This document shows, in pieces, positions 2,460-44,746 of a DNA stretch of 64,000 bases. The stretch's first letter is position 1. Each line of letters opens with the position of its first letter. A program made the translations under genes and the position numbers. The notes below the pieces were generated by a model that was given only the letters and a program-made list of their open reading frames with translations, was not told the origin of the DNA and searched no databases. Source of the stretch: an uncultured bacterium (GTDB lineage Bacteria > Fidelibacterota > UBA2242 > JAFGTP01); the NCBI GenBank assembly GCA_964472715.1, contig CAYYMT010000001.1, positions 13,321-77,320 on the forward strand, written 5' to 3'.

Positions 2460-4922
2460 TTAGGTCAATTCCTCGTCTATTTTGTTTTTCACTTCCTCTT
2501 TTAGATCCTCAACCTCTTTTCCCTCAGGCCGGATTGGGTCAAGATATTTAACTTCAATTTTCACACCGGGTCTCGGAAAATGTTTTCCACGGGGCAATGC
2601 TTTGAAAGCGCCGTCAATAGCCACCGGTACAATGGGAACATTCAGTTCAGCGGATAGGATTGCAAAGGTTTTCTTAAAATCATTGAGTTTACCATCAAAA
2701 GAGCGTGTTCCTTCCGGAAAAATGATAATATTTTTATCTTTGTGTATAACAGCGGCTAATTTTTGCAGGGAGCCTTTTAAATCATCATTGATGTCAACAA
2801 CAATGATATTGCTGGTGCGGGCCAGAAAGCGGATAAACCAATTCTTTACCCATCTCGCCTTGGCAAAGAAATAGGTTTCGCGCAACTGTTTTGTGCTGAG
2901 GCCTGAAACAACTAATACTCCGTCAAGAAAACTTTGATGATTGGGGGCCATGATGTAGGGCGGTTGGGGTAGTTTTTCAATATCTTTAATGGTAACTTTA
3001 AAATAGAGTTTCACGAAAAAACGGAGGATATTGCGCATGATCACGTGAGTGGCCCAACTCTTTGGCAATTTCACATCATGCACTTTTTCTTTGAACACAT
3101 CACTCAGATTCACCGCTTCATGTTTGATCTGTTTTGATTTGCTTTTAATGAATTCCGAAAGTTTATGCACGGTGGGATATTCTTTCAGATGAATTTCCTG
3201 AATATCAACATCAAAGGTTTTTTTGAGAAAAGTCTGCAGGCTGACCTTGTCCAGCGAATCCATACCCAGATCAAATTCCAGGTGGTCATTGGGAAATATC
3301 TTTTTCTCCAATTGACCGCGCATGAAATCACGAATGACAGAATACTCTTTAAATTCCGGCTCTTTGGTTTGGGATTCTTCTTTTTCTGAAATTCCCGGTA
3401 CCAGATCTTTGAGTTTGAAGCGTTTCAGTTTATCCAACCGTGTTTTGGGTAATTCTTCCTCAACAACAGTGATTTTTTTAATTTGCTTATAGGGTGCGAC
3501 ATTATCATTGAATTTACTGATGACCTCTTCCTGGATGTACTTCTTAAAGTCGGTAATTCCTTTTTCTGTTACTTTAGATTTATCAGGAGTGCATACCATT
3601 TGTAGTATGTCCTCATGCATGAATACACCAATTTCATTGATCGTATCCGTTAATTTCAAAATTTCGAATTCCAGGTTCACCGGATTGATGTTCTTGCCGT
3701 TCGGCAGTACAATAATCTCTTTTTTCCGGCCTGTGATAAAGAGATAACCGTCTTTGTCAATGTAACCAACATCGCCGGTATGCAGCCAGCCGTTGATGAT
3801 CGTTTCTTCGGTTTTTTCAGGAAGATTGTAATAACCTTTCATGACATTGGGGCCGCGATTGAGAATTTCTCCGTCAGCAGCAATTTTAATTTCATTGGAA
3901 CCCAGCGATTGACCGACCGCTCCAAAGCGCACTTTTCCCGGCCGGGGAAAGGTTATCATGGGGGCGGTTTCCGTCATTCCATAGCCGGACAATACTTCAA
4001 ACCCCAGGGTGAAAAATCCCTTTTCAACGCTTCGGTTCAAAGCGGCGCCACCGGAAACCATATATTTCAGATGTCCGCCAAATTTCTGATGAATGGTTTT
4101 AAAAACTTTTTTTGAGAAGGTCAGGGAATTGATCCTGCCCGCCAGTTTAAATAGTAATCCGGCAATCTTTTTCTGTTCAATTTTTGCTTTGATACCTTTA
4201 AATAATACGGTATAAAACCGGGGCACGCTGATTATTATAGTAACGTTATTATCATTCAGGGTTTTGACGATATCTTCGGATTCCAGGGTTGGTGTAAAAG
4301 CGACTGTTCCGCCTACATTAAGGGGACAGACAATACAGCCCAAAAGCGGCAATATATGATGCAATGGCAGCATCGCCAGCACTGTTTCATCCTTATTGAA
4401 TATCGGTACGTCTTGTGAGACTGCTTTGACATTAACCCGCAGGTTTTTAAAGGAAAGCATCACTCCTTTGGGACTGCCGGTAGTACCGGAAGAATATATA
4501 ATACAAGCGATATCCTCATCCTTTTTTTCCGGAAAATCTTCGGCTTCGATTTCATCAAAATCATTTTTCACTTCTTCGAATACAATGATTTCCGGTTTGA
4601 TATCCAATTTTTTGAGGGCTTTATTCAGGGTTTCACGATTTTTTTCAGAAGTAAAAATATAATTGGGTTCGCAATCATTCAGAATAAAGGCGACTTCATC
4701 GGGTTTGCTCAGAAAATCAATGGTTACCGGAATAGAATCACTCTTCCAGCAGGCGTAAAATGCATAAACCCATTCCAGCCGGTTTTCCGAAAAAATTGCG
4801 ATTCGCTGCCCTTCTTCCTTTTTAAATAGTTTTGTGTAATGGTCGATAGAAATTAAAAGATTGTTGTAATCAACCTTTTTTTCTCCATAAACTAGCGCTG
4901 TATTTTTACTTTTTTTGATCAC
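2460..4922 (-). CDS. Tri-domain acyl-activating protein: AMP-dependent synthetase/ligase, then an acyl-carrier domain, then a PlsC-type 1-acyl-sn-glycerol-3-phosphate acyltransferase (Aas-like, with rearranged domain order)
   Basis: 820 aa. The AMP-binding signature IIYSSGTTGSPKGVM is in the N-terminal third. A phosphopantetheine-site motif DLGMDSLDKVSL is at ~aa 555. The C-terminal LPLAT motifs are NHQSFLDG (HX4D) and FPEGTRS. Confidence 0.75.
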   Translation of the reverse strand: MIKKSKNTALVYGEKKVDYNNLLISIDHYTKLFKKEEGQRIAIFSENRLEWVYAFYACWKSDSIPVTIDFLSKPDEVAFILNDCEPNYIFTSEKNRETLNKALKKLDIKPEIIVFEEVKNDFDEIEAEDFPEKKDEDIACIIYSSGTTGSPKGVMLSFKNLRVNVKAVSQDVPIFNKDETVLAMLPLHHILPLLGCIVCPLNVGGTVAFTPTLESEDIVKTLNDNNVTIIISVPRFYTVLFKGIKAKIEQKKIAGLLFKLAGRINSLTFSKKVFKTIHQKFGGHLKYMVSGGAALNRSVEKGFFTLGFEVLSGYGMTETAPMITFPRPGKVRFGAVGQSLGSNEIKIAADGEILNRGPNVMKGYYNLPEKTEETIINGWLHTGDVGYIDKDGYLFITGRKKEIIVLPNGKNINPVNLEFEILKLTDTINEIGVFMHEDILQMVCTPDKSKVTEKGITDFKKYIQEEVISKFNDNVAPYKQIKKITVVEEELPKTRLDKLKRFKLKDLVPGISEKEESQTKEPEFKEYSVIRDFMRGQLEKKIFPNDHLEFDLGMDSLDKVSLQTFLKKTFDVDIQEIHLKEYPTVHKLSEFIKSKSKQIKHEAVNLSDVFKEKVHDVKLPKSWATHVIMRNILRFFVKLYFKVTIKDIEKLPQPPYIMAPNHQSFLDGVLVVSGLSTKQLRETYFFAKARWVKNWFIRFLARTSNIIVVDINDDLKGSLQKLAAVIHKDKNIIIFPEGTRSFDGKLNDFKKTFAILSAELNVPIVPVAIDGAFKALPRGKHFPRPGVKIEVKYLDPIRPEGKEVEDLKEEVKNKIDEELT

Positions 4923-5020: not shown

Positions 5021-5062
5021 AAAAAAAAACCGCGCAATTACGAATATCATAATTACGCGGTT
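5021..5062 (-). terminator. Rho-independent terminator for the beta-barrel gene
   Basis: On the minus strand there is an 11-bp stem (ccgcgcaatta / taattacgcgg, one mismatch) with a 9-nt loop, followed by U9. On the plus strand this is the A9 run at 5021-5029. It lies 24 nt past the stop at 5084. Confidence 0.6.
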
Positions 5063-5083: not shown

Positions 5084-6262
5084 TTAAAAACCTGTGGTGA
5101 GGCCTAATACAAACCGGTTGGCCTCATGTTCCATATCCATGGTGTATTCTCCGACAAGACGCAGATTGCGGGATAATAAATAGGTGGTGCTGAGGGTTGC
5201 GGAATGATAATCGGCATCATCCAGTTCAGAATCAATGCGATTATAAAGAAATGTGTAATAAAACCGTGAGCGGTCGTAATTTGGGCTGAAAATCAGTTCG
5301 GCAACAATACCATTGGTCATTATTTCATCACCATTCATAAACAGAGGATCGGAATCCCGGCGCATCAGTAACTGCCCGGTAAAGGCAAAGCGGTCATAGA
5401 CCATATTAACATCCGGTCCGTAATACAAAATTTCATTGGTCATATCTTTTGGCATTCCGGCAATATCCAGTTGGGCTTCTTTGCCGTAATAGACAAAACC
5501 GCCGACACCGATATTTTCACCGATTCCCTGGGCGATACGCAGGCCGAAATTTTTATATTTATCATTATCAAACATTTTTTCCGGGCCGGCGTGGGGTATG
5601 CCATTGCCGTTGACCACCATGGCGACTAAATCAGTGCCGGTTTTTTCAATGCCATAGGTCAAAATAATCCCGCGGTCATAGGCCAGAGTGGTTCCGGAAT
5701 TACCGATTTTTCGTTTATAGATCATATAATCTTCAAAAGTCAGCCGCAGTTCCCGTTTCATTAAGGGATCACAGGTTTGGAATTGCCCGACCATCAGATC
5801 CATTTCCAGTCCTTTGATATTATTAAAATGAATATATGCGTCTTCCAGCCCGGCCACTTCTCCCCTTTCTGAAAGATACATGTAGAAATAATAGCCAATA
5901 TTTTTGTATAATGAACCGCCGGACATCAATTTGACACCCCAGGGCGCCTGCAGATCATTTTTCACAGCGGTATTATCATCGGAAATGGCGTAAGCATCAA
6001 ACCGCACCGCCAGTGGAAAATCACGGCTGAGCCACATCAGATCATCACCGGCAGACACATAATCCCGCGCTCTTTCTTCTTCATCCAGTACAAATCCATT
6101 GCCGGCAAAATCATCACCATAGGGTTTTAACCTGGGAAAGGGATCATGACAGGTTGTGCAGGATATTTTATAACGCCGCGCAAAGGCCGGTATGGCATAA
6201 ACATTTTGCGCAATTAAAAACAACATCATAGTCACCATTAATAATAATTTAATTTTTCTCAT
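5084..6262 (-). CDS. Outer-membrane beta-barrel protein carrying an N-terminal CXXCH heme-binding motif (MtrB/PioB-like porin candidate)
   Basis: Signal peptide MRKIKLLLMVTMMLFLIAQNVYA, followed directly by ISCTTCHD. Alternating amphipathic beta-strand pattern throughout. C-terminal GLTTGF ends in Phe, which is the OMP sorting signature. Confidence 0.55.
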   Translation of the reverse strand: MRKIKLLLMVTMMLFLIAQNVYAIPAFARRYKISCTTCHDPFPRLKPYGDDFAGNGFVLDEEERARDYVSAGDDLMWLSRDFPLAVRFDAYAISDDNTAVKNDLQAPWGVKLMSGGSLYKNIGYYFYMYLSERGEVAGLEDAYIHFNNIKGLEMDLMVGQFQTCDPLMKRELRLTFEDYMIYKRKIGNSGTTLAYDRGIILTYGIEKTGTDLVAMVVNGNGIPHAGPEKMFDNDKYKNFGLRIAQGIGENIGVGGFVYYGKEAQLDIAGMPKDMTNEILYYGPDVNMVYDRFAFTGQLLMRRDSDPLFMNGDEIMTNGIVAELIFSPNYDRSRFYYTFLYNRIDSELDDADYHSATLSTTYLLSRNLRLVGEYTMDMEHEANRFVLGLTTGF

Positions 6263-6309
6263 ACTGTTCCTCCTTTAGTATAACCCTATTTTTTTCGATA
6301 ATGTTACAT

Positions 6310-7647
6310 TTAATCATAAACCAAAAATTCTGTTGATGTTTCATTCATAACCACGATTTCACTCTCTTCTTCCGGAACTTCCAGAAAATCCGCCACCGGT
6401 TTCACCAGTTTTTGGTAATTCAGTGAGGCCCGTACCTTTACTTTTCCAAAGGCGATGTCGTGAGGCATTTCCCAGGTAAAATTTTCGATTTTGGTTTCCC
6501 GCGGCCCAATTCTGTAGTCAACTCCCAGTGAGCGGGTGTTCCACTGCATGATCGTCATAACGCCATTCTGATCGAAGTAGGGCATGCGGAAAATTCGATT
6601 TCCTGTCGGAATGCCATCCCGCTGTACACCTTTGAAATCTTTTTTCCCCAAGGGAATTCCCATGTCTGTATAGGCCAGTTCATCGGCGGCAATTGTATAT
6701 TCTTCTCCGTCAAATCCTTTTTTGTCCACAGGTAAATGATATTCATTTCCGGCTTCGTCAGTAGCGGTTACATCGAGCCATAAAATCCTGTCCTCTACAG
6801 AACCGGTGGGTATCTTGTGTCCGGCTTTGGCATTGAATAATTCCACCTGTACTCTGACAACGCCGTCGTAGGGTACTTCCAGTTGATCACAATGCATGGA
6901 AATCTCAATTGCGCCGCGAAGTTTCGCCGGATTGTGAGCTCCCAGAAAAACATGTTGCGCCACCATTCCTTCCTTTGCCATGGGAGCGCTGCGACCCGGC
7001 GCTTTTGGCATATGGCAGGTAAAGCATTTTACACCTTCTTCGGCATAGGGGCCTTCCGCCCACTCTATTTGCGTGGATTTAACATAAATTCCGTAAGGAT
7101 TTTTTTCATTATGACAAGAGCCGCAAAGCTCGGTTTGACGGAACAGGGCATTTTCCTCTGTAATGTGATGGGGAGATTCCAGGCCCGGTTTCGCGCCGTA
7201 TTTAGTACGGCCGGGCTGTGATATCCAACTGAAATTCACGGCTTCACCGGAAATACCGGTCATGGTATGGCATATATCGCAGGAAACGCCTTCATTGGCG
7301 CGGGACCCTTCTTCGGGACGCGGCGGCGGTACATCTCCGGCCAGATAAGCAAGAGGCGCGTGACAACCATTACAATCATCCGCCACCGGTTTAAAAAAAT
7401 CATCCACTTCACCATGGGGAACAGCCAGATCAAAATATTCGATTTCATCCCAATGATGGGTAAAGGACTGCGACATCATGGAACGCTTCCACTGATAATA
7501 AATATCCACGTGGCAGCTGGCGCAGGCTTGTGGTTTTTCATACTGGCTGTATTGTTTTGACCCCTTGGCCTCTTCCCCGGCCGGCCATTCTTTGGCAAAT
7601 AATAATATGACTAATATCAGGGGAAGAAAGAGTATTATTTTTTTCAT
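6310..7647 (-). CDS. Secreted multiheme c-type cytochrome (five CXXCH motifs)
   Basis: CASCH, CNGCH, CDICH, CGSCH and CFTCH all fall in the N-terminal ~210 aa after a signal/TM segment. A ~240-aa non-heme domain follows. The likely start is the second Met, MKKIILFL, at 7647; the ORF track extends to 7671. Confidence 0.8.
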   Translation of the reverse strand: MKKIILFLPLILVILLFAKEWPAGEEAKGSKQYSQYEKPQACASCHVDIYYQWKRSMMSQSFTHHWDEIEYFDLAVPHGEVDDFFKPVADDCNGCHAPLAYLAGDVPPPRPEEGSRANEGVSCDICHTMTGISGEAVNFSWISQPGRTKYGAKPGLESPHHITEENALFRQTELCGSCHNEKNPYGIYVKSTQIEWAEGPYAEEGVKCFTCHMPKAPGRSAPMAKEGMVAQHVFLGAHNPAKLRGAIEISMHCDQLEVPYDGVVRVQVELFNAKAGHKIPTGSVEDRILWLDVTATDEAGNEYHLPVDKKGFDGEEYTIAADELAYTDMGIPLGKKDFKGVQRDGIPTGNRIFRMPYFDQNGVMTIMQWNTRSLGVDYRIGPRETKIENFTWEMPHDIAFGKVKVRASLNYQKLVKPVADFLEVPEEESEIVVMNETSTEFLVYD

Positions 7648-7878
7648 GATTTCCTCATCGCTTATTGGCACCTTTACTATAATAAGTATTTTATCTAACT
7701 AAAATCAAATAATCCCCCTTTTTTTTCTTTATAATTAAAATAATTACTAATAAAGGCTACAACGGTATTTGACAAACAGTTACCGGACAGACATGATAAA
7801 AGAGATGACTTTTAGGAGAGTCGCCGATTATTCTGTTGAAAGTTATCGGACTTTATTTTATATTGGACTATAAATATT

Positions 7879-8766
7879 ATGGGGACATTAATCATGAAAA
7901 AGAAATTACTGATCTTTTTTCAAATTTTAACACTGGTCATTATAATTTTATTGGCGATTTCTACTTTTTTCATTCAGCACCATGATCCGGCAAATTATAG
8001 TGATAATGCTATTGTCAGATTGTTATGTTTGGACCATTATTACAACTCCTGGCTGAATGTGAGCTTATTTATGCTCATGGCATTGCTGCTATTGTTTTCA
8101 CTCTTGAGTGGCGGAATAAAAAGTCGCTGCCAGCAAATATTACACATCACAATTTTAGGGTCATTTTTCATTATAATGTTTGATAAAGGTTTTAATCAGC
8201 GCACGATAGTACCCTTTCCTGAAAAAGAAACCATCAATTTTTCCGATATTATTAATGATCCCGATACGGACCATACAATTATCCTGGATAAATTTGAAAT
8301 CGATTTGCATACCGGTAGCCGGATGGTCAAAGCCTATGTCAGTCATTTGATCATCAATGAAATGGACACAGTACAATTGAAGGTGAACAAACCGGTCCAA
8401 ATCGGCAAATACAATCTCTACCAAAATGCCTATGACCGGGTACCTGTTTATGACTTAAAAATTAAGGATTATAATTATGGGATATCTCCTTTTGATACTT
8501 TATATGTGGATGGCAATCAAGTGTTTATTGACCTTTCGCAAGATTATAAACAGATGACCTTCCACTTCAATGAACAGGAACATGTCTTGTCGGTTAGAGG
8601 CGGACGCTTCCACATTGCGGAATTTCCGGTTGAAATTGAAATGGAGGGGATGAAGTATGTCAGCATTATTGAAGTCGCTGAAGTGCGTGGCATGGGGCTT
8701 TTGCTGATCTTTGGAATTGGCTATTTGATTTCCCTTGGCTATTGTTTTTGGAGGAAAAAATCATGA
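7879..8766 (+). CDS. ccsB: Cytochrome c biogenesis protein, ResB/CcsB-like (system II), short form
   Basis: N-terminal TM helices, a periplasmic domain and a C-terminal TM helix. The 3' end overlaps ccsA by 25 nt. It is divergent from the multiheme cytochrome. The assignment rests mostly on context. Confidence 0.45.
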   Translation: MGTLIMKKKLLIFFQILTLVIIILLAISTFFIQHHDPANYSDNAIVRLLCLDHYYNSWLNVSLFMLMALLLLFSLLSGGIKSRCQQILHITILGSFFIIMFDKGFNQRTIVPFPEKETINFSDIINDPDTDHTIILDKFEIDLHTGSRMVKAYVSHLIINEMDTVQLKVNKPVQIGKYNLYQNAYDRVPVYDLKIKDYNYGISPFDTLYVDGNQVFIDLSQDYKQMTFHFNEQEHVLSVRGGRFHIAEFPVEIEMEGMKYVSIIEVAEVRGMGLLLIFGIGYLISLGYCFWRKKS

Positions 8767-9518
8767 TCTATGAAACATATTTACTGCTGGCAGCCGCCTT
8801 TAGTTTTTTAATCGCGCTAATTTTTAGTATTAATCTGAACAAAGAATATACCGGCCGTGTGTTCATCTTTTTGGGAATTGCTTTGCAATTACTTTTGTTG
8901 ATCCTCCGATCTTATTACGCCAAGCATCCGCCTTTTACCAACCTTTATGAAACAATGATTCTGCTGCCTTTCCTCTTTTCCCTGCGATTGGTTTTCTGGA
9001 AGGAACAGGTGAAAGGCAATATTCAATATGGCGTAATTGGTATCATTCTGTTGCTGGATGTTATCGCCATCATGATGCCGGAACATTTGAAAATCATCAA
9101 ACCCCTGATGCCGGCCTTGAATAGTTTCTGGATGTATATCCATGTTCCCGCCTATTTTATTGCTTACGCTTCGATGCTGGTTGCCACAGTACTGGCAATA
9201 TTATTACTGGCACGCAAAGATGACCGGAATATACTGGCAAAAAAACTGGATGGCGAGGTTAAAATCGCTTTCTTCTTTCTGAATGCCGGTATGATCACCG
9301 GCGCCATCTGGGCCTATTATAGTTGGGGAACTTACTGGGGTTGGGATCCTAAGGAGGTTTGGTCGCTGATCAATATTTTGGTGCTCTCTTATTATTTTCA
9401 TATCAATAAAAAAGGGGTAATACCCAAAGCCGTCATTGTGATTATAACCTTACTGACGATTATTTTTACTTATATTGGTGTGACTTTTATTTTACCGGGA
9501 CTGCATAGTTATACATAA
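8742..9518 (+). CDS. ccsA: Cytochrome c-type biogenesis protein CcsA/ResC (system II heme handling)
   Basis: Polytopic membrane protein with the tryptophan-rich WWD motif WGTYWGWDPKEVWSL. Confidence 0.8.
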   Translation: MFLEEKIMIYETYLLLAAAFSFLIALIFSINLNKEYTGRVFIFLGIALQLLLLILRSYYAKHPPFTNLYETMILLPFLFSLRLVFWKEQVKGNIQYGVIGIILLLDVIAIMMPEHLKIIKPLMPALNSFWMYIHVPAYFIAYASMLVATVLAILLLARKDDRNILAKKLDGEVKIAFFFLNAGMITGAIWAYYSWGTYWGWDPKEVWSLINILVLSYYFHINKKGVIPKAVIVIITLLTIIFTYIGVTFILPGLHSYT

Positions 9519-30046: not shown

Positions 30047-31423
30047 TTACTTTTCCTTTAAATTCTGCTGAAAGGCAATCAGCAATTGCTCAGCTTCTTC
30101 ACGGCGACCTGTTTTTGCCAGTAAACCCACCAGTTTTTTCAGAGCCTCCTGATCATTATTATCCAAAGTCAGAATTAAATCAAACACAAAAATCGCTTCG
30201 CTGTATTTATGATTTTTAATCAGCAGCGTACCGACAATAGTCAGGTATTTTATATCCTTGACAGTAAAATGTGGCTTTAATTTTTCCAGATGTTGAAAAG
30301 CCTGGTCAAAAGACTGCTTATCCATATAGTAATTTAACAGTGTTTGATGAGCAAAGATATTGTTTTTGTTTAATTTCAATATTTCTTTACAAGTGGCGAC
30401 ACAATCTTTGACATCTTTGGTTTTTAAGTCAATTTTAGCGATTTCCTGCAGTATTTTTTCATCCTCAATGATAACATCTGTTGAGCCCCGTTTCCCTGAT
30501 TTTCGCAGTAATTGATTTTTATTCAGCAGATATTTCAGCCATTTTCCGGCCTCCACCCGGTTTCCCTGTTCAAGCGCGATTTTATAGAGCAGATAGTAGG
30601 CGCCGGTCTGGTCCTTTTCCAATTTTAAGGACTGGTTGATCTTTTCTACGGCGGCCTTATATTCTGCCGTTTTCATGAGTACTTCCGCATAAGTGACCAG
30701 CAGGGATGCGGTCATTTGCTTGTTCAATTGTTTCAGTTCCAGGGCTTTTTGGAAATTTTTTGCCGCGGCTTCATAGTCATTGCTCATGGCGTAATTCTGC
30801 GCCAATGTGTAGTAACCATAGGCATAATCCGGTTCTTCATGCACCATCTGCTTCAGTAATTCCAGGTTTCTGGCATTTTTTTTCTGCTGAACTGTTTCAT
30901 CCAGATTATAGCCGTAATGCAATATTTCAATATTGGTGGTAAATTCTCTGCCGCCAAGTTTTTTTAAACCGGTAGAAATCTGTTCATGAATCCGGCCCTT
31001 GAATTCAATGCCAAAGTGATTGGCAAACAACCGGTGGGCATCGGAAATATAAAAATAATCCCCTTTTTGAAAATTCTTAATATTGACCTTGTAAATTTCC
31101 GGCCGGGAGGGCTTATTATTAATAATTGATAAGAGTTCATTTTTCGAATCAGAATCCAGCCGTTCATCGGCATCCAGCCAGAGAATCCAGGTGCCGCCGG
31201 CATATTTGATGGATTCATTACGGGCGGCGGAGAAATTCCCATTCCATTTAAAATGGTGCACATCAGCGCCATATTTCTCGGCAATGTCAATTGTCTTATC
31301 TGTTGAGCCGGTGTCAATAATGATCATTTCATCCACGATACCGGCCACGCTTTCCAGACAGCCGGACAGCATTTTTTCTTCATTTTTTACAATCATGCAG
31401 AGGGATAATTTTTTATTGGTCAT
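30047..31423 (-). CDS. Family-2 glycosyltransferase with C-terminal TPR repeats
   Basis: The N-terminal GT-A fold is LSLCMIVKNEEKMLSGCLESV...IIIDTGSTDKT...WILWLDADE, with a DxD-like DADE. The C-terminal half is TPR-like helical repeats. Confidence 0.75.
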   Translation of the reverse strand: MTNKKLSLCMIVKNEEKMLSGCLESVAGIVDEMIIIDTGSTDKTIDIAEKYGADVHHFKWNGNFSAARNESIKYAGGTWILWLDADERLDSDSKNELLSIINNKPSRPEIYKVNIKNFQKGDYFYISDAHRLFANHFGIEFKGRIHEQISTGLKKLGGREFTTNIEILHYGYNLDETVQQKKNARNLELLKQMVHEEPDYAYGYYTLAQNYAMSNDYEAAAKNFQKALELKQLNKQMTASLLVTYAEVLMKTAEYKAAVEKINQSLKLEKDQTGAYYLLYKIALEQGNRVEAGKWLKYLLNKNQLLRKSGKRGSTDVIIEDEKILQEIAKIDLKTKDVKDCVATCKEILKLNKNNIFAHQTLLNYYMDKQSFDQAFQHLEKLKPHFTVKDIKYLTIVGTLLIKNHKYSEAIFVFDLILTLDNNDQEALKKLVGLLAKTGRREEAEQLLIAFQQNLKEK

Positions 31424-34400
31424 TCATGTCCTTTGTTTTGATGGTTTTCCAGCTGACTTTTCAATTGCAATGCCAGCTCATTTTGCGGGTCACCTTCCAA
31501 TATGCGGGAAATGTACTTTCCGGCCTCATCAACCCGGCCGGTTTCCAGGCTGAATTGGGCCATTCGCGATAATGCTGTTATATCGGCGGGATGCCGCTTA
31601 ATCACCTCGATAAATTCTTTGATTCCCTCCTCATATTGTTCAGTGAGGATATAGACCTCAGCCAGGTTGCGGCGCGGGTCAAGGGAATCTTCATTGTATG
31701 CCAGTGATTTTTTCAGATTATCGATGGCTTTGTCAGGTTCTCCCAATTCAAAATAAATTATCCCGATTAAATTCAGTACGAAGGAATTGTCACCATAAAT
31801 TTTTTCTAAATGCGGTAAATATTTCCGTAATGTTTTCTCATCCTGCATATTTTTAGCACACAAAACCCATCCTAATAAGCGGTTGCTCAGAGAACTTTTC
31901 TCATATTCCCATTGGTATTGTCTGGCCAGATCTGCCAGGTTATTTTGCCCGGCTGCCTCATTCACCTCATTGATAATCTTGAATATATCCTTTTGAAAAC
32001 GGATGATCGGTTTGGAGGCCAGTTTCTGAATTCGGTTTTGAGTTAGAAAAGTAACCACATTCCAATCCCAGTTCTTTTTCACGTAATCAGCAGCATATCG
32101 TCCCATTTTGGTCATAATATCCGGATTACGCCAGGCAAATTGCATTTTTTGCGCAAGATCGATTTTATCGGCTTCCCAAAACCAGGCTTTTTCCACTAGT
32201 TTCTCATTAGAAACTTTATCAAAATTTTGCACTCTCTTTTCCGCTTTGACCAAAAGTGATGTCCGCTTATTGCAAAAATCCAGGGCGGCACCGCCATTGG
32301 TAATAATTGTGGGAATGCCACAGGCCATGGCTTCCAGGATCGGCAACCCAAACCCTTCACCACGGTACGGATGAACCAGAACGTCACAGGCGGTGTAAAG
32401 CCCGACCAGTTCTTCATCACTTAGTGTGTCGTCAATATACTCAATTTCAGGATTATTTTTCCCATGAATCATGGTAGCGATTTTTTCCTTAAAATTTTGA
32501 TTTTTATAAAAAGACTCCCCGCCGAAATCCTTGATAACCAGACAAACTTCATCAGTTCGGGAAAAAGTATTAATATAAGATTCCAGCAAAATATCAATGC
32601 CCTTGCGGTAAATTGTGCCGCCAATAAACAGGAATTTGAATTTTTTACTGGTCTGGAGTTTATATGGCATTGCCTCAGGATTAAACCTCTCAGTATCCAC
32701 CCCATTGGGAACAACGAAAACTCTTTCTCTGTCGATCCCACTGTCCAGATAGACCTGTTTGACGTAGGTGGATGGTACCCACATTTCATCAACCTGATCG
32801 TTGAATGCATTTACCCATTTCTCCGGTAAAAAGCCAAATTCCCAGGGCTGAATAACCACCCAGTGTCCGGTTTTAGGCGGTTTCAGCTTGGGCGGCCACT
32901 GGTGGCGGACATGTATATCAGCGACACCAATCTGTTTATTTTCCAGTTTTTTAAGTTGCTTCCATTTACCTTCCGGCTGAAATTGATCTTTTTTATAGGG
33001 AAATAGTGACAGATTATAACCCGTTTGTGCCAGACGCAATGATTGTTCACGGTTTACCAAAGCCAGGGAATGATAGGCGAATTGATCTCCCTCCCAGACA
33101 ACTTTAATTTCTCCGGCCGGTTGATCATAAGGATTAATGGGTATATTTTTTATGGAATTGATTTTGCCTGCCAGTTCCTGATTGACCGAAGGTTTTTTTA
33201 AAATATGAGTTCCAAGGTACAGGGCTTCACCCTTCCGGTTGGTGAACCAGTAAATTTCCATCAATTTTTCCAATGCTTCCAAATCTTCAGGATGATGCAA
33301 TAAATAGATTTCCAATAAGTTTCCGGACTCTTCAAACTCTTGTTGATAGAAGAGAGAAATTCCCAATATTTTATTTAATTGATAGTCAAAGGGATCCAGT
33401 AAAAGCGCCTGGCGAAATAATTTTTCACTTTGGTCATAAATTTTATTATAGAGGCATATCTCTCCCAGTTTTTTGGCCACAAAATAATTATTGGATTTAT
33501 CCATCCGGAGATAGTGCAATGACCGCATAATGCCATTAACATCACCTTTTTCATGATAGATATTGGCCAGTTCTTTATTGGCAACAGGATGAAAAGGATT
33601 AATTTCTAATATTTTCTGAAAATGTACAGGTTTACGGGTGGCTTGCCCTTTTTTGAGCAAGGATTTTATTTCTGTTATATTTTCAGCCATATTTTTCAGG
33701 TAATTTGAATAGTTTTGCAAATCCTTTTTTCTGCGCCGCGCTTCCTCATCATCATTACTCAGTATATCGGCATAAATCCAGCGAAAAATTTGAATTTCCT
33801 CATCTTTGCCCTGTACACGGTAGTAATTTTCATTTAAAAATGTCTGAAAACGAACAAACCCCCTGGTTTCAGCAATAACGACAATATATTTCGGCGGCCG
33901 GCTTTCCAGACTTTGCATAATATTTTCTTCTTCCCTGAAGGGAGCCGGTACATATCCGGTAACACTTGGATGGGGACAAAACAGAGTGTTTGTCGGAGAG
34001 GGCCGTTCCGCCCAGAGAAAAATTTCATATTGCGCGCCCCAGACATAAATCTCATCTTCCCTTGTTGTTACTTCCTGTAAGGATTTGCCAATTTTTTCGC
34101 CCAGTGTGAAAAAGAGCCATTCATTGGGATGATTGATGTACATTAATCCGCGCTGAACCTTTTCCCGTTTAAAAATCCCCCTGATTTCCTTGCTGGTCAG
34201 CAACAGGCTCAAAATAACAATTACCAACACAATTGGAATTGATAAGATAAAAAACTTATTCCAGACAGCATAAATCCCCAGCGCCGATAAAATAGCCATA
34301 GGGGCCGCCACAGGCAGCAAATGATATGGCATGATGTGCTTGTTCAGGTAAACGGCTATTAATGCAAAAATCAGCCAACTACCAATTATAATTACAAAGG

Positions 34401-35319
34401 TATATGCAGAAAAATTTCCAAGAAATATCAGCGGAATGAATATTGTAAAAACCAGTGTCTGGCGAAAAAATTTACCATATATATCACGGGCAAATTGTTT
34501 TTGTTGTGACTGAAACCCCTGATTTTCCTTATCAATATAAACACGACGTTCCTTATCAACCTTTATTTCCCGATCTTTTCTGCCTGCGAAATTTTTCCGC
34601 CCATAAAAAATATTGTCTAAATGCATTAAAAAGGCTTTCGGTGTGAGGGAAAATATATCGAGAAAATGAGGGAACATTCTTTTTTTGTAAAAATAGAATC
34701 CCGTTAAAAACAACCCCGGTATAGCCCCCGCAAAAAACAGCAAATAATTATTCCAGGTAAACTCAATCAGAGCAATCGCGATAAGTACCGGCGGAAAGGT
34801 GTTAATATATGCCGATTGTTTGAAAAATAACGCCATAAAACTCATCAGACCGGCCAGAACGAAAACCCAGTTGCCATTCACAGGGCTGATACAAACCAGG
34901 GCAATGGCTAAAGCAGTGAAAGCGCTTTGTTCAATTTCATCACTGGATTGCACCCACACAAAGGTGGGCAGGGAAACCAGAATACCATAGAGCAAGGTCG
35001 CCACAAAGGCAAAATTAACCGGTAAAAACGCAGATGAAATAATAAAAACGGCAATTTGTGTTATCAACATGAAAAAAATTGCGCTATAGCGAAACAGAGA
35101 CCTTGAAACAGCAAAAAAATTTAATAAAAAGGCATACAGCAGCCAGCGCCCTGGCGGATGATTTTCCTGTGTATCTCTCACCGGCATTCTTTGTTTACGT
35201 AGCCAAAAAAGTCCGTGGTATCCATAAATACCAAAATCAGCATCCAGGGGCACTTGCAGATAAGGTATCTTTATCAAAATTGTAAAAATACATATCAGTG
35301 ATAAATATAAAATAACCAT
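31420..35319 (-). CDS. Giant multi-domain glycosylation protein: polytopic GT-C-like membrane region (PMT/ArnT-like), TPR block, GT4 glycosyltransferase domain, and C-terminal TPR block
   Basis: 1299 aa. At least 10 TM helices at the N-terminus, with a first-loop LDADFGIYGYHG acidic motif. TPR repeats around aa 560-700. GT4 motifs KFKFLFIGGTIYRKGID and HPYRGEGFGLPILEAMACGIPTI (EX7E). TPR repeats again at aa ~1130-1290. Confidence 0.7.
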   Translation of the reverse strand: MVILYLSLICIFTILIKIPYLQVPLDADFGIYGYHGLFWLRKQRMPVRDTQENHPPGRWLLYAFLLNFFAVSRSLFRYSAIFFMLITQIAVFIISSAFLPVNFAFVATLLYGILVSLPTFVWVQSSDEIEQSAFTALAIALVCISPVNGNWVFVLAGLMSFMALFFKQSAYINTFPPVLIAIALIEFTWNNYLLFFAGAIPGLFLTGFYFYKKRMFPHFLDIFSLTPKAFLMHLDNIFYGRKNFAGRKDREIKVDKERRVYIDKENQGFQSQQKQFARDIYGKFFRQTLVFTIFIPLIFLGNFSAYTFVIIIGSWLIFALIAVYLNKHIMPYHLLPVAAPMAILSALGIYAVWNKFFILSIPIVLVIVILSLLLTSKEIRGIFKREKVQRGLMYINHPNEWLFFTLGEKIGKSLQEVTTREDEIYVWGAQYEIFLWAERPSPTNTLFCPHPSVTGYVPAPFREEENIMQSLESRPPKYIVVIAETRGFVRFQTFLNENYYRVQGKDEEIQIFRWIYADILSNDDEEARRRKKDLQNYSNYLKNMAENITEIKSLLKKGQATRKPVHFQKILEINPFHPVANKELANIYHEKGDVNGIMRSLHYLRMDKSNNYFVAKKLGEICLYNKIYDQSEKLFRQALLLDPFDYQLNKILGISLFYQQEFEESGNLLEIYLLHHPEDLEALEKLMEIYWFTNRKGEALYLGTHILKKPSVNQELAGKINSIKNIPINPYDQPAGEIKVVWEGDQFAYHSLALVNREQSLRLAQTGYNLSLFPYKKDQFQPEGKWKQLKKLENKQIGVADIHVRHQWPPKLKPPKTGHWVVIQPWEFGFLPEKWVNAFNDQVDEMWVPSTYVKQVYLDSGIDRERVFVVPNGVDTERFNPEAMPYKLQTSKKFKFLFIGGTIYRKGIDILLESYINTFSRTDEVCLVIKDFGGESFYKNQNFKEKIATMIHGKNNPEIEYIDDTLSDEELVGLYTACDVLVHPYRGEGFGLPILEAMACGIPTIITNGGAALDFCNKRTSLLVKAEKRVQNFDKVSNEKLVEKAWFWEADKIDLAQKMQFAWRNPDIMTKMGRYAADYVKKNWDWNVVTFLTQNRIQKLASKPIIRFQKDIFKIINEVNEAAGQNNLADLARQYQWEYEKSSLSNRLLGWVLCAKNMQDEKTLRKYLPHLEKIYGDNSFVLNLIGIIYFELGEPDKAIDNLKKSLAYNEDSLDPRRNLAEVYILTEQYEEGIKEFIEVIKRHPADITALSRMAQFSLETGRVDEAGKYISRILEGDPQNELALQLKSQLENHQNKGHE

Positions 35320-35579
35320 AACTTGCTCCCTTGAATTCTGTTTTTTATTGTTTTATCCATAATCAGCCAATATTCCAGTTACAGATTCAGCCTTCTTGCT
35401 GAAAACTTACTTTTTTAAACCCTTAGTTCGAACCATATTGGGACCGGTTTCCGGATAAAACGGAACTGCAAAAATCAATATTTTCTTTCGTTTTGTTTTC
35501 ATATCAGATTTCACTGCTGTAACAACACATACTAATTAGTGTGTACTCTAAACATAAATTATACATTATAAAGCATGTA

Positions 35580-35831
35580 TTAAGCCGACTTGTAAGTATC
35601 ATAAATTCCTTTCCAGCCGGCGGGTGTCAAAAATTTGAAATGGTAATCATCGTCTGAACAATTGGCTTTAATCGTTATTGAACCGGGGCTGTTTTGGGTT
35701 AACGGATATGTTTCAATTTCCGGAATCAATCCTGAATTATTAAATTCTGAATAGAATTCAGGGGGATGAAAAGGATCATCAGGATATTGACATTGTGGCA
35801 ACTTTGCTATAAATACATCAGGTTTTGTCAT
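35580..35831 (-). CDS. Hypothetical small protein (83 aa), probably translationally coupled to the upstream adenylating enzyme
   Basis: The ORF overlaps the preceding gene's stop by 14 nt. No recognisable motif. Pro, Asp and aromatic-rich. Confidence 0.3.
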   Translation of the reverse strand: MTKPDVFIAKLPQCQYPDDPFHPPEFYSEFNNSGLIPEIETYPLTQNSPGSITIKANCSDDDYHFKFLTPAGWKGIYDTYKSA

Positions 35832-37158
35832 TTTTCACCTTTGAAAATACAAATTGGTATTTCCCCGATTTAAGTTTGGGTAGGGACTCGATAATGTTGA
35901 ATTTTATTTCACATGGCTCTCCCATAATATAATTAATTTTATTTTTTACTTTATCTAAATTATTATCACTTACTTCACTTTTTTGGGCTTCCAGATTAAT
36001 GGTGAATTTTTGATAATCCTCCTGAATCAGTTGAAATTTTTTCACAGACCTCATGAAATAGAACAAATGGGTAAACAGTTCACCATGAATAATATTGCCG
36101 TCCTTGCGAATAATGTGGGCGTTTTCACGGCCGTTTAATCCGGATAAGGAGCGAACGGCAGTACCGTCTATAGTATGACTTTCGCCAATATCGCCGGTAT
36201 CGAATTTTATCAGCGGCATGGCATAATTATTCAGCTGCGTTATAATGACATTGCCAACGCCCGCGTTCCTGATATATTGCCGGGAATTTTTGTTAAATAA
36301 CTCCAGATAAACGGAATGGCTGAATATATCGATATCCTCAGTTCCGATTCCAATAATACCAACTTCCTTTGAACCATATTGGTTAGCAATAATGGATTCC
36401 GGAAAAGCCGCCTTGATTTCCTCTTTTAACTCCGAATACATGGTTCCGGCGGTACAAACAATAACGTGGGGCTGAAAAACCTTCAGATTGGGATTACGAT
36501 TTTTATATTTGGCGATTTCAAAGATCGAATCCACATAAGTCCAGATCATTTTGGGGCGCACCGCATTGATTACCTCAATATAGTTTTCAATCAGGCGATG
36601 ATTGAGTTTGAAACTATTAAGCAAAATCCGGTTAAAGAAGTAATTTTTTAATTTACCGGAAAAGGATTTCTTTTCGTTGAAAATATCCTTTTCCGACCCC
36701 CATAGTTTGATCTCCTGCTCGCCGGGATGTTTATCATATAATTCGCCAAAATACAAGGTGTCCGCTACCATGCGGTTATAATAGTCGCTATCTTGTATAA
36801 AAACCACCGGCTCACCCGTTGATCCGCAGGAATTATTTTTGTAAATTTTTCGGCGGTGATTGTCTTTTGAGCATATTTGCTCATAGTTTTCCCGAATAAT
36901 TTTCTTAGTCAGAAGGGGAATTTGATTAAATTTCTCCCAATTGATTTTATCGTCTTTAATCAGGCCGATTTCATTAAAAAGTCTGTGATAATAAGTAGTA
37001 TTATGATAAGCATGAAATATTAATTTTCGCAACCGGAATAATTGATAATTATAAACATTTTCCCTATTTACATAGAGTTTTCTGGTCTGACGTAAATATT
37101 TAAGCACATCGGGTTTATATAATCTCAGTAAAATTGGCGCTATTTTGGTCTTAATCAT
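35818..37158 (-). CDS. CapK / phenylacetate-CoA ligase (PaaK)-like adenylate-forming enzyme
   Basis: NSCGSTGEPVVFIQD resembles the PaaK/F390-synthetase P-loop (SSGTTGKP). The size and the C-terminal lysine region fit. The start is taken at MIKTK (37158) to avoid overlapping the asnB-like gene; the ORF track extends to 37227. Confidence 0.6.
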   Translation of the reverse strand: MIKTKIAPILLRLYKPDVLKYLRQTRKLYVNRENVYNYQLFRLRKLIFHAYHNTTYYHRLFNEIGLIKDDKINWEKFNQIPLLTKKIIRENYEQICSKDNHRRKIYKNNSCGSTGEPVVFIQDSDYYNRMVADTLYFGELYDKHPGEQEIKLWGSEKDIFNEKKSFSGKLKNYFFNRILLNSFKLNHRLIENYIEVINAVRPKMIWTYVDSIFEIAKYKNRNPNLKVFQPHVIVCTAGTMYSELKEEIKAAFPESIIANQYGSKEVGIIGIGTEDIDIFSHSVYLELFNKNSRQYIRNAGVGNVIITQLNNYAMPLIKFDTGDIGESHTIDGTAVRSLSGLNGRENAHIIRKDGNIIHGELFTHLFYFMRSVKKFQLIQEDYQKFTINLEAQKSEVSDNNLDKVKNKINYIMGEPCEIKFNIIESLPKLKSGKYQFVFSKVKNDKT

Positions 37159-39031
37159 AATATACATCCAGCCATTTTTGAAAGACATAAAGCGTCCACA
37201 ATAATTTCCGGTTATCCTTTTTTTCATTTAGATGATCCTGCATGAGACTGTCGATATAATCGTAATTAAAAATATTATAATGCTGAATATTTTGCCTGGA
37301 CAGCGTTTGCAGAAATTCTGATTTCAAATCTGATTTTATCCACTTGGTAACGGGAATGCCAAATCCTTTTTTGGGACGATTGATAATTTTTTCCGGAAGA
37401 TATTTTTTGGCCAGGCGTTTCAGTAAATATTTTGACGTCAGGCCGCGATATTTTAGCCGGGCCGGCACTTTCGCCATGAACTCCACCACTTCCTTGTCCA
37501 AAAACGGAACCCTAACCTCCAGGGAATTCATCATACTGGCGCGGTCAACCTTGACCAGCATATTATCCTGCAGATAAAAGCGCATGTCCAGCCACAAAGA
37601 CCGCTCCCAGTTATTTTCTGTCTGGCACCGTTTCATATGCTGCCTGATGATTTCTAATTTTTGAACCTTCTTACCCAGCACATTCAATAATTCAGGTGAT
37701 AGCAGATGTTTTTTTTGGTTAGTATCAAAGGAGCCGAGCCATATCTGATGGCGAATATCAGGATCATACTTCAGGCCTGCAACAAATTTCTTGGCTTTAA
37801 AATCAAAACTTATATTCTCGTCTGATGTTGGTAACAAATTCACCACCGGATTAAGCAGATAATGTGAAAATCGCGGCATAAAACCACCGATTTTCCGGGC
37901 TAAATAAGTTGGATATCCGGCAAATATTTCGTCACCCCCATCACCGCTCAGAGCAACAGTGACATTTTCCCTGGTGAGTTGCGACAGCAGATAAGTGGGC
38001 AAAATGGAATCGTCAGCAAAGGGTTCGTCCATATTGCGGACAATTTCCGGCAGGATGTCCATCATTTCACCAGGTGTAAAAATTTTTTCAAAGTGTTCCG
38101 TATCCAGATAGCCCGACATAAACCGGGCGTAACTGGTTTCATCAAAAGAATCTTCGGCAAATCCAATACTGAAGGTTTTCAGGTTATTTTTCATGCTTCT
38201 TGATAAGTAGGCCGCAATCAGGCTGGAATCAAGGCCACCGCTGAGGAAAGACCCCAACGGCACATCACTGACTTTGCGGCGCTCCACGGCCTTCCTGATC
38301 AGCCAATCCAGTTCCTGAACATAAAAATCAACATCACGGGAGCTATACTTTGGCTGAAATTCTAAAAAATAATATTGATGCCTGGTTAATTTATTCCTTG
38401 ATAATTCCAGATAATGGCCCTGTTCAAGCTTATGAATATTATTAAAGATCGATAAGGGAGCCGGTACCGATTCGAATGTCAGGTAATAATTCAGCGCTTC
38501 ATAGTTGAGTTCTTTTTTGAAAGCAGGAAAAGTGAGAATGGATTTTAGTTCCGAAGCAAAAATGAAATCGCCATCTTTATGGTAATAATATAACGGCTTG
38601 ATGCCAAAGCGGTCCCGGGCCAGGAAAAGTGAGTCCCGGTTGAGATCAAGAATAGCAAAAGCAAACATGCCGTTCAGTTTATCCAGGCAGTTCACCCCTT
38701 CTTCTTCATAAAGATGCAAAATGACTTCTGTATCGGATTGGGTTTTAAATTGATGACCCGCCGCCTGTAACCTTTTTCTCAGTTCCCGGAAATTATAGAT
38801 TTCGCCGTTAAAAACAATCGCCAGTGATCTGTCCTCATTAAAAATCGGCTGGTCTCCGGTGTTGATATCAATCACCCGCAACCTGCGCATGCCAATGGCA
38901 AAATCATCGATCACAAAATATCCGCTGTCATCCGGGCCGCGATAAGCGATTTTATCGCACATTTTTTCCAGTATATTGGATTTTTCCTGCTGTGAAAATT
39001 TTTTTGATATGAATCCGGCTATCCCACACAT
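37151..39031 (-). CDS. asnB: Asparagine synthetase (glutamine-hydrolysing) family amidotransferase (AsnB/PseA-like)
   Basis: N-terminal MCGIAG Ntn-Cys. PP-loop SGGLDSS in the synthetase domain. 626 aa. Confidence 0.85.
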   Translation of the reverse strand: MCGIAGFISKKFSQQEKSNILEKMCDKIAYRGPDDSGYFVIDDFAIGMRRLRVIDINTGDQPIFNEDRSLAIVFNGEIYNFRELRKRLQAAGHQFKTQSDTEVILHLYEEEGVNCLDKLNGMFAFAILDLNRDSLFLARDRFGIKPLYYYHKDGDFIFASELKSILTFPAFKKELNYEALNYYLTFESVPAPLSIFNNIHKLEQGHYLELSRNKLTRHQYYFLEFQPKYSSRDVDFYVQELDWLIRKAVERRKVSDVPLGSFLSGGLDSSLIAAYLSRSMKNNLKTFSIGFAEDSFDETSYARFMSGYLDTEHFEKIFTPGEMMDILPEIVRNMDEPFADDSILPTYLLSQLTRENVTVALSGDGGDEIFAGYPTYLARKIGGFMPRFSHYLLNPVVNLLPTSDENISFDFKAKKFVAGLKYDPDIRHQIWLGSFDTNQKKHLLSPELLNVLGKKVQKLEIIRQHMKRCQTENNWERSLWLDMRFYLQDNMLVKVDRASMMNSLEVRVPFLDKEVVEFMAKVPARLKYRGLTSKYLLKRLAKKYLPEKIINRPKKGFGIPVTKWIKSDLKSEFLQTLSRQNIQHYNIFNYDYIDSLMQDHLNEKKDNRKLLWTLYVFQKWLDVYYD

Positions 39032-40137: not shown

Positions 40138-40167
40138 TCATATGTCCCGGTTATATCTTACTTAAAA

Positions 40168-41241: not shown

Positions 41242-41256
41242 ATTTATTTATTTTTT

Positions 41257-43143: not shown

Positions 43144-43152
43144 TAGCCAGGG

Positions 43153-43383
43153 CTATTTTTTTTTGCTGAAGGATTTTAGTATATCAGCATTCAAGGTGCT
43201 GTTAAAAACGGAAGCGCGATTTTTTGCCTTGATTCGTTCGTATACCTCTTCACGATGCACCGGAACCTCGCGGGGCGCGTTAATTCCGATTTTGGTGTGG
43301 CCGTTACTGCATTCCAAAACTCTGATGACGATGTTGCTTCCAATTCTGATACTCTCTTCGGTTTTTCTGGTTAAAACAAGCAT
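43153..43383 (-). CDS. csrA: Carbon storage regulator CsrA
   Basis: MLVLTRKTEESIRIGSNIVIRVLECSNGHTKIGINAPREVPVHREEVYERIK matches CsrA almost along its full length, including the GxxG RNA-binding region. Confidence 0.9.
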   Translation of the reverse strand: MLVLTRKTEESIRIGSNIVIRVLECSNGHTKIGINAPREVPVHREEVYERIKAKNRASVFNSTLNADILKSFSKKK

Positions 43384-43413
43384 ACTCCCTCCATGGAATA
43401 TTATTAAAATAGT

Positions 43414-43848: not shown

Positions 43849-43852
43849 TTAG

Positions 43853-44734: not shown

Positions 44735-44746
44735 AATTACCTCTGA

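Follow-up and report, generated by a model that had tools for sequence, protein, structure and literature searches.

A Cyc2-like heme-porin in operon with a c552-type pentaheme cytochrome: a candidate iron-oxidising electron path across the outer membrane of Marinimicrobia and related bacteria

What could an outer-membrane barrel with a single heme motif do next to a secreted pentaheme cytochrome? This question is raised by a two-gene operon in a stretch of 64,000 nt (contig CAYYMT010000001.1, assembly GCA_964472715.1) from an uncultured bacterium of the Fidelibacterota (Marinimicrobia). We call this whole stretch the window, and coordinates are positions within it unless a locus label (L0xx) is given. 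A preliminary description had seen in the pair a possible minimal conduit for extracellular electron transfer, or else an outer-membrane redox enzyme system. Our analysis points to a probable member of the Cyc2 family, associated across several phyla of the Fibrobacteres–Chlorobi–Bacteroidetes (FCB) group with a cytochrome resembling c552 of T. tepidum. In our judgement, there is an even chance that the two proteins oxidise Fe(II) and pass the electrons across the outer membrane, for iron/oxygen stress management and not for iron-based growth. The two genes are the following:

5084-6262, minus strand: Cyc2-like fused monoheme cytochrome-porin, 392 aa, with signal peptide, heme region AIPAFARRY-KIS-CTTCH-DPF-PRL, predicted 16-strand beta-barrel and C-terminal Phe (open reading frame (ORF), motif, AlphaFold2, Foldseek and hhalign).
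6310-7647, minus strand: secreted pentaheme c-type cytochrome, 445 aa, with five CXXCH at residues 42-212 and a C-terminal beta-sandwich with GHK.PTGSVEDR (ORF, alignment and 5ze8_A).

The barrel starts with MRKIKLLLMVTMMLFLIAQNVYA followed by IPAF, a hydrophobic leader ending in VYA and called a signal peptide by inspection, then continues with IPAFARRYKISCTTCHDPFPRL and ends in GLTTGF. Its sole CXXCH is CTTCH at residues 35-39. Scans of Pfam and NCBIfam gave no family match for it, and a sequence search of the Protein Data Bank (PDB) with its profile returned nothing meaningful; no Cyc2 structure is deposited there. Sequence databases hold 2155 homologues. The closest one, 94% identical, belongs to a Fidelibacterota (Marinimicrobia) metagenome-assembled genome (MAG). 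Identity remains at ~60% in proteins of KSB1, Latescibacterota, Calditrichia and Eisenbacteria, remarkably high for a porin. When 29 homologues, drawn from five phyla or more, are aligned, P25, F27, R29, R30, S34, C35, T37, C38, H39, P43 and L45 prove invariant. The Cys pair and the His of the heme motif are thus conserved without exception and, together with the 16 strands of the model, they support the earlier proposal of a heme-bearing outer-membrane beta-barrel, to which the heme would be covalently attached.

The residues around CXXCH are informative in themselves. Cyc2 proteins display a unique signature, AXPXFAR[Q/K][T/Y], in which FAR precedes CXXCH by five residues, and a PXL that follows CXXCH at a distance of four (Keffer et al. 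2021, PMC8406198). We judged membership by this published motif and by homology to proteins carrying its canonical form, looking for a signal peptide, a single N-terminal CXXCH, the motif, a length of at least 365 aa and a 16-strand porin domain. The barrel reads A-I-P-A-F-A-R-R-Y-KIS-CTTCH, in agreement with the spacing and with eight of the nine positions, Arg30 standing instead of Gln/Lys. PXL is found in CTTCH-DPF-P43-R-L45, where P43 and L45 are both invariant, and the length of 392 aa exceeds the limit. The AlphaFold2 model shows 16 strands at residues 84-391 (pLDDT 67, pTM 0.70), low confidence being confined to the heme region, where no heme was included in the modelling. Its Foldseek matches are 16-strand general and phosphate porins, including OprO (4rjx, TM 0.54), the template reported for Cyc2.

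More distant proteins link the barrel to canonical Cyc2. An exhaustive profile search collected 2523 cluster representatives, among which remote full-length relatives retain IPxFAR[KQ]Y..C..CH..P.LN.FG (FARQY or FARKY); hhalign aligned the profile of remote members with that of the FCB barrels over 388 columns (probability 100, E 9.2e-84). The exact published motif (AIPAFARQY) is present among relatives of this remote clade in Gallionellaceae, Acidiferrobacterales, Chromatiales, Microbulbifer and Persephonella. A tblastn search of plasmids with the barrel gave only a weak partial match in Methylocystis. From its sequence, we conclude that the barrel is probably a member of the Cyc2 family, or at least a close sister. 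The design is not unprecedented, since the barrel bears the defining Cyc2 motif and Cyc2 homologues, mostly of cluster 3, have already been listed by MAG surveys in Calditrichota, KSB1, Krumholzibacteriota, Eisenbacteria and Gemmatimonadota, at least one of these surveys having relied on FeGenie (PMC9769843, PMC7914226).

Is the pentaheme neighbour a regular partner? In a survey taking one genome per species, the barrel was found in at least 251 genomes, and neighbourhoods were counted in the best 80 of these, all of them MAGs of FCB-group phyla. The pair is present in Marinimicrobia, KSB1, Calditrichota, Latescibacterota, Krumholzibacteriota and relatives. In 77 of the 80 loci, the barrel gene is directly preceded by a pentaheme gene on its own strand, and the remaining three loci are truncated upstream. 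NCBI locus tags of homologous cytochrome and barrel genes are likewise adjacent. The pairing noticed in the preliminary description is thus a general one, and the two proteins would be expected to contact each other. None of five remote Cyc2-like genes inspected has a pentaheme partner beside it, and such genes stand alone in Microbulbifer, in a Pseudomonadota MAG and in two further assemblies; the partner therefore appears specific to the FCB clade. In one remote locus (L093:579-7772), the Cyc2-like gene (P0387) is followed by genes for a CarboxypepD_reg protein, an unknown protein, and cupredoxin-like, Rieske, ferredoxin-like and cytochrome b proteins, an order that recalls an iron-oxidising respiratory cluster.

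The cytochrome contains exactly five CXXCH (CASCH, CNGCH, CDICH, CGSCH and CFTCH) within ~170 aa, followed by ~235 aa devoid of heme motif. The preliminary description had given this architecture correctly, but not, in all likelihood, the length of 453 aa: ATG 7647 (445 aa) is preceded by GAGGA 5 nt upstream, gives the same length as the homologues and is the likely start, rather than GTG 7671 (453 aa). With 73% mean column identity among 26 sequences from several phyla, the family is tighter than that of the barrel. Only ten Cys are conserved in its alignment, all in the five CXXCH motifs; eight more His are invariant, sufficient for five bis-His hemes, so that all five could be of this type. 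The C-terminal domain displays the invariant loop GHK.PTGSVEDR. In one Marinimicrobia MAG (L007:6652-7988), the pentaheme gene is split into two ORFs of 188 and 257 aa, probably by a frameshift or an assembly error.

A profile search of the PDB with the cytochrome gave one significant relative, 5ze8_A (E 1.1e-12), aligned in the heme domain and in the H-x-x-P-T-G loop. This protein, the penta-heme cytochrome c552 of Thermochromatium tepidum, is presented in publication titles as low-potential and of unknown function (Chen et al. 2019). In the AlphaFold model of the cytochrome, the heme domain is poor and the beta-sandwich (residues 240-445) confident, its sole weak spot being the GH loop at 275-277; 5ze8 is again the top Foldseek match (E 1e-10), the others being generic Ig-like domains. 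Pfam reports Cytochrome_C554, the ExtKL model NF040886 gives 55.4 bits, far below its cutoff of 250, and decaheme models give weak partial matches only. With five CXXCH, a C-terminal Ig-like beta-sandwich and detectable 5ZE8 homology, the cytochrome is, as judged from these features, a member of the c552 (5ZE8)/MccSep/ExtKL superfamily. It is of the His type, like c552, because neither the Cys ligand of MccSep nor its Sec/Cys is present.

We rejected NrfA, HAO or tetrathionate reductase as identities of the cytochrome, these giving only single-motif matches, as well as a MccSep-type sulfur enzyme, conserved Cys or Sec being absent outside CXXCH. Neither of the two outcomes that the preliminary description had set against itself was observed: the barrel is not a generic porin with an unconserved Cys pair, and the cytochrome does not fall into a known periplasmic enzyme family.

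These properties can be compared with those of several known systems. The characterised Cyc2 proteins (A. ferrooxidans Cyc2, Mariprofundus Cyc2PV-1 and Leptospirillum Cyt572) share with the barrel the signal peptide, the N-terminal CXXCH, AxPxFAR and PxL, a length of ~400 aa and an OprO/OprP-like 16-strand barrel (PMC8406198). On the other hand, the barrel has Arg at the Gln/Lys position of the motif, its sequence keeps ~60% identity from one phylum to another, in contrast to the poor conservation reported for the porin domains of Cyc2, it is always paired in operon with a pentaheme while the distant Cyc2-like genes inspected stand alone, and its neighbours are stress genes, not respiratory ones. 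The cytochrome resembles c552 by its five CXXCH, its size (445 versus 435 aa), its C-terminal beta-sandwich, its H-x-x-P-T-G loop and a His, not a Cys, after heme motif 5. Yet identity is only ~22%, and the FCB cytochromes form a very tight family of their own.

MccSep, identical to ExtKL, is a periplasmic pentaheme selenoprotein and the polysulfide reductase of Geobacter, structurally likened to 5ZE8; its heme 2 is ligated by Cys239, and the Ig-like domain brings in Sec325 (bioRxiv 10.1101/2025.11.18.688581). Five hemes, an Ig-like domain and a weak match to the ExtKL model are common to both proteins, but the cytochrome has neither the heme-2 Cys ligand nor a catalytic Sec/Cys. The ptdABCDEFG cluster of marine Alpha- and Gammaproteobacteria, Nitrospirales and Planctomycetes, of unknown function, encodes in this order a c552-like pentaheme, a porin, a flavoprotein, a tetraheme, an FeS protein, a ferric-reductase-like protein and a decaheme (bioRxiv 10.1101/2023.11.21.568154). 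Its ptdAB part, a pentaheme then a porin, matches our pair in kind, the comparison being by description only. In contrast, the window lacks equivalents of ptdC-G, having neither tetraheme nor decaheme genes, and what flanks the pair is unrelated.

The resemblance to MtrB/PioB drawn in the preliminary description proved weak. As in MtrCAB, MtoAB and PioAB, an outer-membrane barrel and c-type cytochromes would carry electrons across the outer membrane. However, these systems use a 26-strand sheath round a separate decaheme and reach solids (PMC8406198), whereas here a 16-strand pore with one covalent heme is predicted and the five-heme partner is too small to span the membrane; an MtrB/PioB-like sheath was thus rejected, both strand number and partner being wrong. 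A minimal conduit to metal oxides or electrodes, as had been envisaged, is unlikely, because a one-heme 16-strand porin probably reaches only soluble species.

Further relatives of the cytochrome were found by tblastn against annotated plasmid records, in pShin-02 of Shinella sp. HZN7 and in a record of Aeromonas caviae. In pShin-02 (L095, 4203-9674), the gene order is imelysin, DUF4405, multiheme cytochrome and FTR1 iron permease. In Aeromonas caviae (L094, 3888-8150), a fusion protein of 989 aa, with the cytochrome at its C-terminal end, is encoded between the FTR1 gene and a small membrane ORF, DUF4405-like by inspection and without Pfam match. The latter record (NZ_AP026896.1, 4.94 Mb, 18 annotated features) is labelled plasmid in PLSDB and is evidently a chromosome. 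In hhalign, 332 columns of the FCB cytochrome profile, those of the GAGH.LPTG loop among them, align with the Shinella cytochrome (probability 99.1, E 1e-18). Since FTR1-type permeases couple transport to Fe(II) oxidation, these cytochromes plausibly take electrons from Fe(II), and the clusters look like an uncharacterised cytochrome-dependent iron uptake system. Cytochrome superfamily, GAGH.LPTG loop and an iron-handling setting are shared with our pair, but in place of an outer-membrane heme-porin these clusters encode an inner-membrane FTR1 permease (in Shinella along with DUF4405 and imelysin).

Turning to the locus itself, the ORF list of the window confirms the four reading frames of the preliminary description and their positions. 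Besides the pair, its features are:

5028-5062, minus strand: intrinsic terminator closing the two-gene operon, 16-bp stem (6 GC pairs), 3-nt loop and T-run, 22 nt past the barrel stop codon.
6269-6275, minus strand: Shine-Dalgarno AAGGAGG of the barrel gene, 6 nt ahead of its ATG (read from the sequence).
7648-7878, no strand: divergent AT-rich intergenic region with the promoters of both transcription units (read from the sequence).
7879-8766, plus strand: short ResB/CcsB-like cytochrome c biogenesis protein, 295 aa (Pfam ResB).
8763-9518, plus strand: CcsA, the heme-handling subunit of system II, with WWD motif WGWDPKEVWSL (PF01578); its ATG overlaps the resB stop.

The cytochrome and barrel genes form a bicistronic operon, divergent from resB-ccsA and with its promoter in 7648-7878, because the 47-nt gap between them holds the AAGGAGG and a strong terminator follows the pair at 5062-5028. 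K-mer counting upstream of the cytochrome gene (250 bp, 56 loci) brought up only AT-rich words and no operator common to the loci, for example of the PerR or Fur type. The divergent promoter region of the window carries at 7729-7760 (minus strand) an AT-rich near-repeat, TAGTAATTATTTTAATTATAAAG (TAATTATTTTAATTA), loosely Fur/PerR-box-like and with no conserved counterpart elsewhere.

The preliminary description had also connected the pair with system II cytochrome c maturation, and this connection recurs: ccsA is near the pair in 17-18 of the 80 loci and resB in 9-12, mostly in Marinimicrobia or unclassified MAGs. In the window, a CcsA with WWD motif is accompanied by a ResB partner, as expected for CcsBA/ResBC, although this ResB is short (295 aa). 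It scores 34.8 bits with Pfam ResB PF05140 (cutoff 24.6); CcsA scores 103 bits with Cytochrom_C_asm PF01578, and 152.9 bits with TIGR03144, under the cutoff of 187.6. Its start is most likely ATG 8763, in an ATGA overlap with the resB stop. Other Marinimicrobia loci also have a short ResB-like ORF next to the pair, of 248 aa in L007 and of 295 aa in L009. Where ccsBA is present, the usual order is resB-ccsA-cytochrome-barrel on a single strand, the divergent arrangement of the window being a local variant.

Among ORFs of at least 80 aa in the window, only the barrel and the cytochrome bear CXXCH. The remaining genes encode ordinary heterotrophic functions such as glycoside hydrolases, flagellar proteins, glycosyltransferases and UvrC; scans of the window for tRNAs and Rfam families gave no matches. 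Directly downstream of the operon, 2460-4922 (minus strand) encodes an 820-aa fusion of AMP-binding acyl-ACP synthetase, phosphopantetheine-binding and acyltransferase domains, resembling Aas-type lysophospholipid re-acylation enzymes. Farther away, at 30047-46105 (minus strand), large TPR-glycosyltransferase fusions (458, 1299 and 628 aa), an asparagine synthase and a sulfotransferase-like protein adjoin flagellin and FlgK genes, and this region may be a flagellin glycosylation island.

What, then, surrounds the pair in other genomes? Unbiased clustering of neighbouring ORFs in the 80 loci brought out peroxiredoxin/redoxin and, in 12 loci, nitroreductase as recurrent neighbours. A desulfoferrodoxin-type superoxide reductase is near the pair in 9-10 of these loci, often directly upstream, and a Fe/Mn superoxide dismutase with twin-arginine (Tat) signal in 8, mostly directly downstream. 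Flavodiiron/ODP-type di-iron proteins (7 loci; directly upstream in Calditrichaceae-type ones) and ferritin (6 loci) complete the set. At least one stress gene lies within 3 kb of the pair in 28 of the 80 loci. Up to 3 kb from the pair, the density of stress genes is 0.134 per kb; farther out in these loci, at 3-10 kb, it is 0.029 per kb (binomial p 5e-9, a statistic that ignores shared ancestry). The clearest example is L081, with the Pfam-confirmed order ferritin, superoxide reductase, peroxiredoxin, cytochrome, barrel and superoxide dismutase. Four different arrangements of stress genes are seen, in different phyla, which speaks against one inherited accident. In several KSB1-type loci, the gene following the barrel or the superoxide dismutase (L031:11299-12102, L046:12200-13003, L062:1300-2115, L076:2358-2642) encodes a secreted protein of ~267 aa with a type IX secretion C-terminal sorting domain, a conserved N-terminal GKTG.T..GC.CHG, whose CxCH departs from the standard motif of heme c, and no other Pfam domain.

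The reading we favour combines these observations. Dissolved Fe2+ would enter or dock in the Cyc2-type pore and be oxidised at the single porin heme, from which the electron would pass to the periplasmic pentaheme cytochrome and then to periplasmic or inner-membrane acceptors. The conserved His loop (GHK.PTG) of the cytochrome beta-sandwich would point towards the heme domain, and the divergent resB-ccsA would attach all six hemes. Such a path could remove Fenton-active Fe(II) at the cell surface and/or provide electrons for oxidant removal. We infer this iron/oxygen stress role from the neighbourhoods, the link to ferritin and the hosts of the pair, which we take to be anaerobic or microaerophilic heterotrophs, mainly of sulfidic or saline sediments. 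Iron detoxification has been raised before, without evidence, as an alternative role of cluster-3 cyc2 (Garber et al., PMC8446621), and the synteny with stress genes is evidence for this idea.

Several points weigh against this reading, besides the shared ancestry behind the density statistic. The 64-kb window has no gene for defence against reactive oxygen species (ROS), and the neighbours in its own lineage, the Marinimicrobia, are resB-ccsA plus DJ-1/PfpI in two loci; the stress link is thus transferred from other phyla. All barrel homologues found in the survey come from MAGs, the assignment of the barrel to a Cyc2 cluster is drawn from the literature, and the barrel clade has an invariant Arg30 where the published motif wants Gln/Lys. 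The extreme conservation of the cytochrome (73% across phyla) suggests an enzyme, not a simple relay. Moreover, this partner may be low-potential, favouring outward flow or catalysis: bis-His low-potential hemes would be poor acceptors for electrons derived from Fe(II) (Cyc2PV-1, +208 mV), and would favour outward flow.

Energy-conserving iron oxidation, in which, as in Zetaproteobacteria or Acidithiobacillus, the barrel would be the iron oxidase of a litho- or mixotrophic chain and the pentaheme would replace Cyc1 or rusticyanin on the way to a terminal oxidase or nitrate reductase, is rather unlikely. It would agree with the membership of the barrel in the Cyc2 family, with the usual interpretation of Cyc2 matches in MAG studies (PMC9769843, PMC7914226) and with the one remote relative adjoining cupredoxin, Rieske and cytochrome b genes. 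Yet stress-defence genes are what recurs beside the pair, and no oxidase, bc1, cupredoxin or carbon-fixation genes are among the frequent neighbour families of the 80 loci. In view of record titles, the hosts appear to be mainly anaerobic heterotrophs, and the nearest solved relative of the partner is described as low-potential.

The stress-management reading has a bolder form, which we hold to be unlikely: the pair would be an envelope antioxidant device of anaerobic FCB bacteria, in which the pentaheme reduces O2, H2O2 or superoxide with electrons drawn through the heme-porin from extracellular Fe(II). If true, a Fenton hazard would become the reductant of detoxification, and many 'Cyc2' matches of sediment metagenomes would mark oxygen defence, not iron energy metabolism.

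The main idea of the preliminary description, restricted to soluble acceptors, is that the low-potential pentaheme and the porin heme export electrons to chelated Fe(III), a shuttle or O2. The low potential reported for the nearest solved relative, the invariant His sufficient for five bis-His hemes and hosts that appear to be anaerobes all suit this direction, and a Tat superoxide dismutase directly downstream would suit reduced hemes leaking superoxide once O2 appears. We nevertheless find it quite unlikely, since Fe(II) oxidation is the activity of each of the three Cyc2 proteins characterised (PMC8406198), minerals and electrodes are out of reach for a single heme in a 16-strand pore, and no quinol dehydrogenase (CymA, NapC or CbcL) is encoded next to the pair.

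Could the pentaheme rather be a periplasmic enzyme acting on a small non-iron substrate (sulfur, nitrogen or oxygen species), the barrel being mainly its channel and the porin heme accessory? The very high conservation of the cytochrome would fit, as would its superfamily and domain plan, shared with MccSep, whose active site is completed by a residue of the Ig-like domain; in the otherwise confident beta-sandwich of the cytochrome, confidence is low only at the invariant GH loop (275-277). Many hosts come from the sulfidic Zodletone spring, according to record titles. In extHIJKL of Geobacter, another c552-like pentaheme is encoded next to a porin gene, and such pentahemes recur beside porin genes elsewhere. 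An example is ptdAB (bioRxiv 10.1101/2023.11.21.568154). However, the catalytic features of MccSep (heme-ligating Cys, Sec or Cys) are missing from the cytochrome alignment, the 55 bits of the ExtKL model fall far short of its cutoff (250), matches to NrfA cover one motif and are of marginal significance (E 0.025-0.19), and the invariant Cyc2 heme motif of the pore is left unexplained, which makes a dedicated enzyme with its pore distinctly improbable. Lastly, an ordinary diffusion porin with a chance CXXCH beside an unrelated cytochrome is hardly credible: the barrel has no Pfam/NCBIfam family and its fold matches general porins, but CXXCH and the ~15 residues around it do not vary between phyla and persist in remote relatives, adjacency in 77 of 80 genomes together with this invariance rules out a chance motif, and ~60% identity across phyla is unusual in porins.

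Cyc2-type proteins are already known, as are the c552/MccSep fold, with a function known only for MccSep, and the ptdAB pair of pentaheme and porin. Three features appear to be undescribed in the literature searched: the obligate operon of a Cyc2-like heme-porin and a c552-type pentaheme across FCB phyla, the joining of this pair with ccsBA into one Marinimicrobia cluster, and its embedding in clusters of O2/ROS defence genes. A poorly understood superfamily of cytochromes, that of c552, MccSep and PtdA, is hereby tied to iron handling. A concrete periplasmic partner can also be named for a Cyc2-type protein, and the step following the porin heme would become directly testable. Cyc2 is the main genetic marker from which microbial iron oxidation is inferred in metagenomes. 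Cluster-3-type matches dominate marine sediments (PMC8446621). In view of the fixed pentaheme partner and of the frequent setting of O2/ROS defence, caution is warranted before Cyc2-like matches of FCB bacteria are called lithotrophy.

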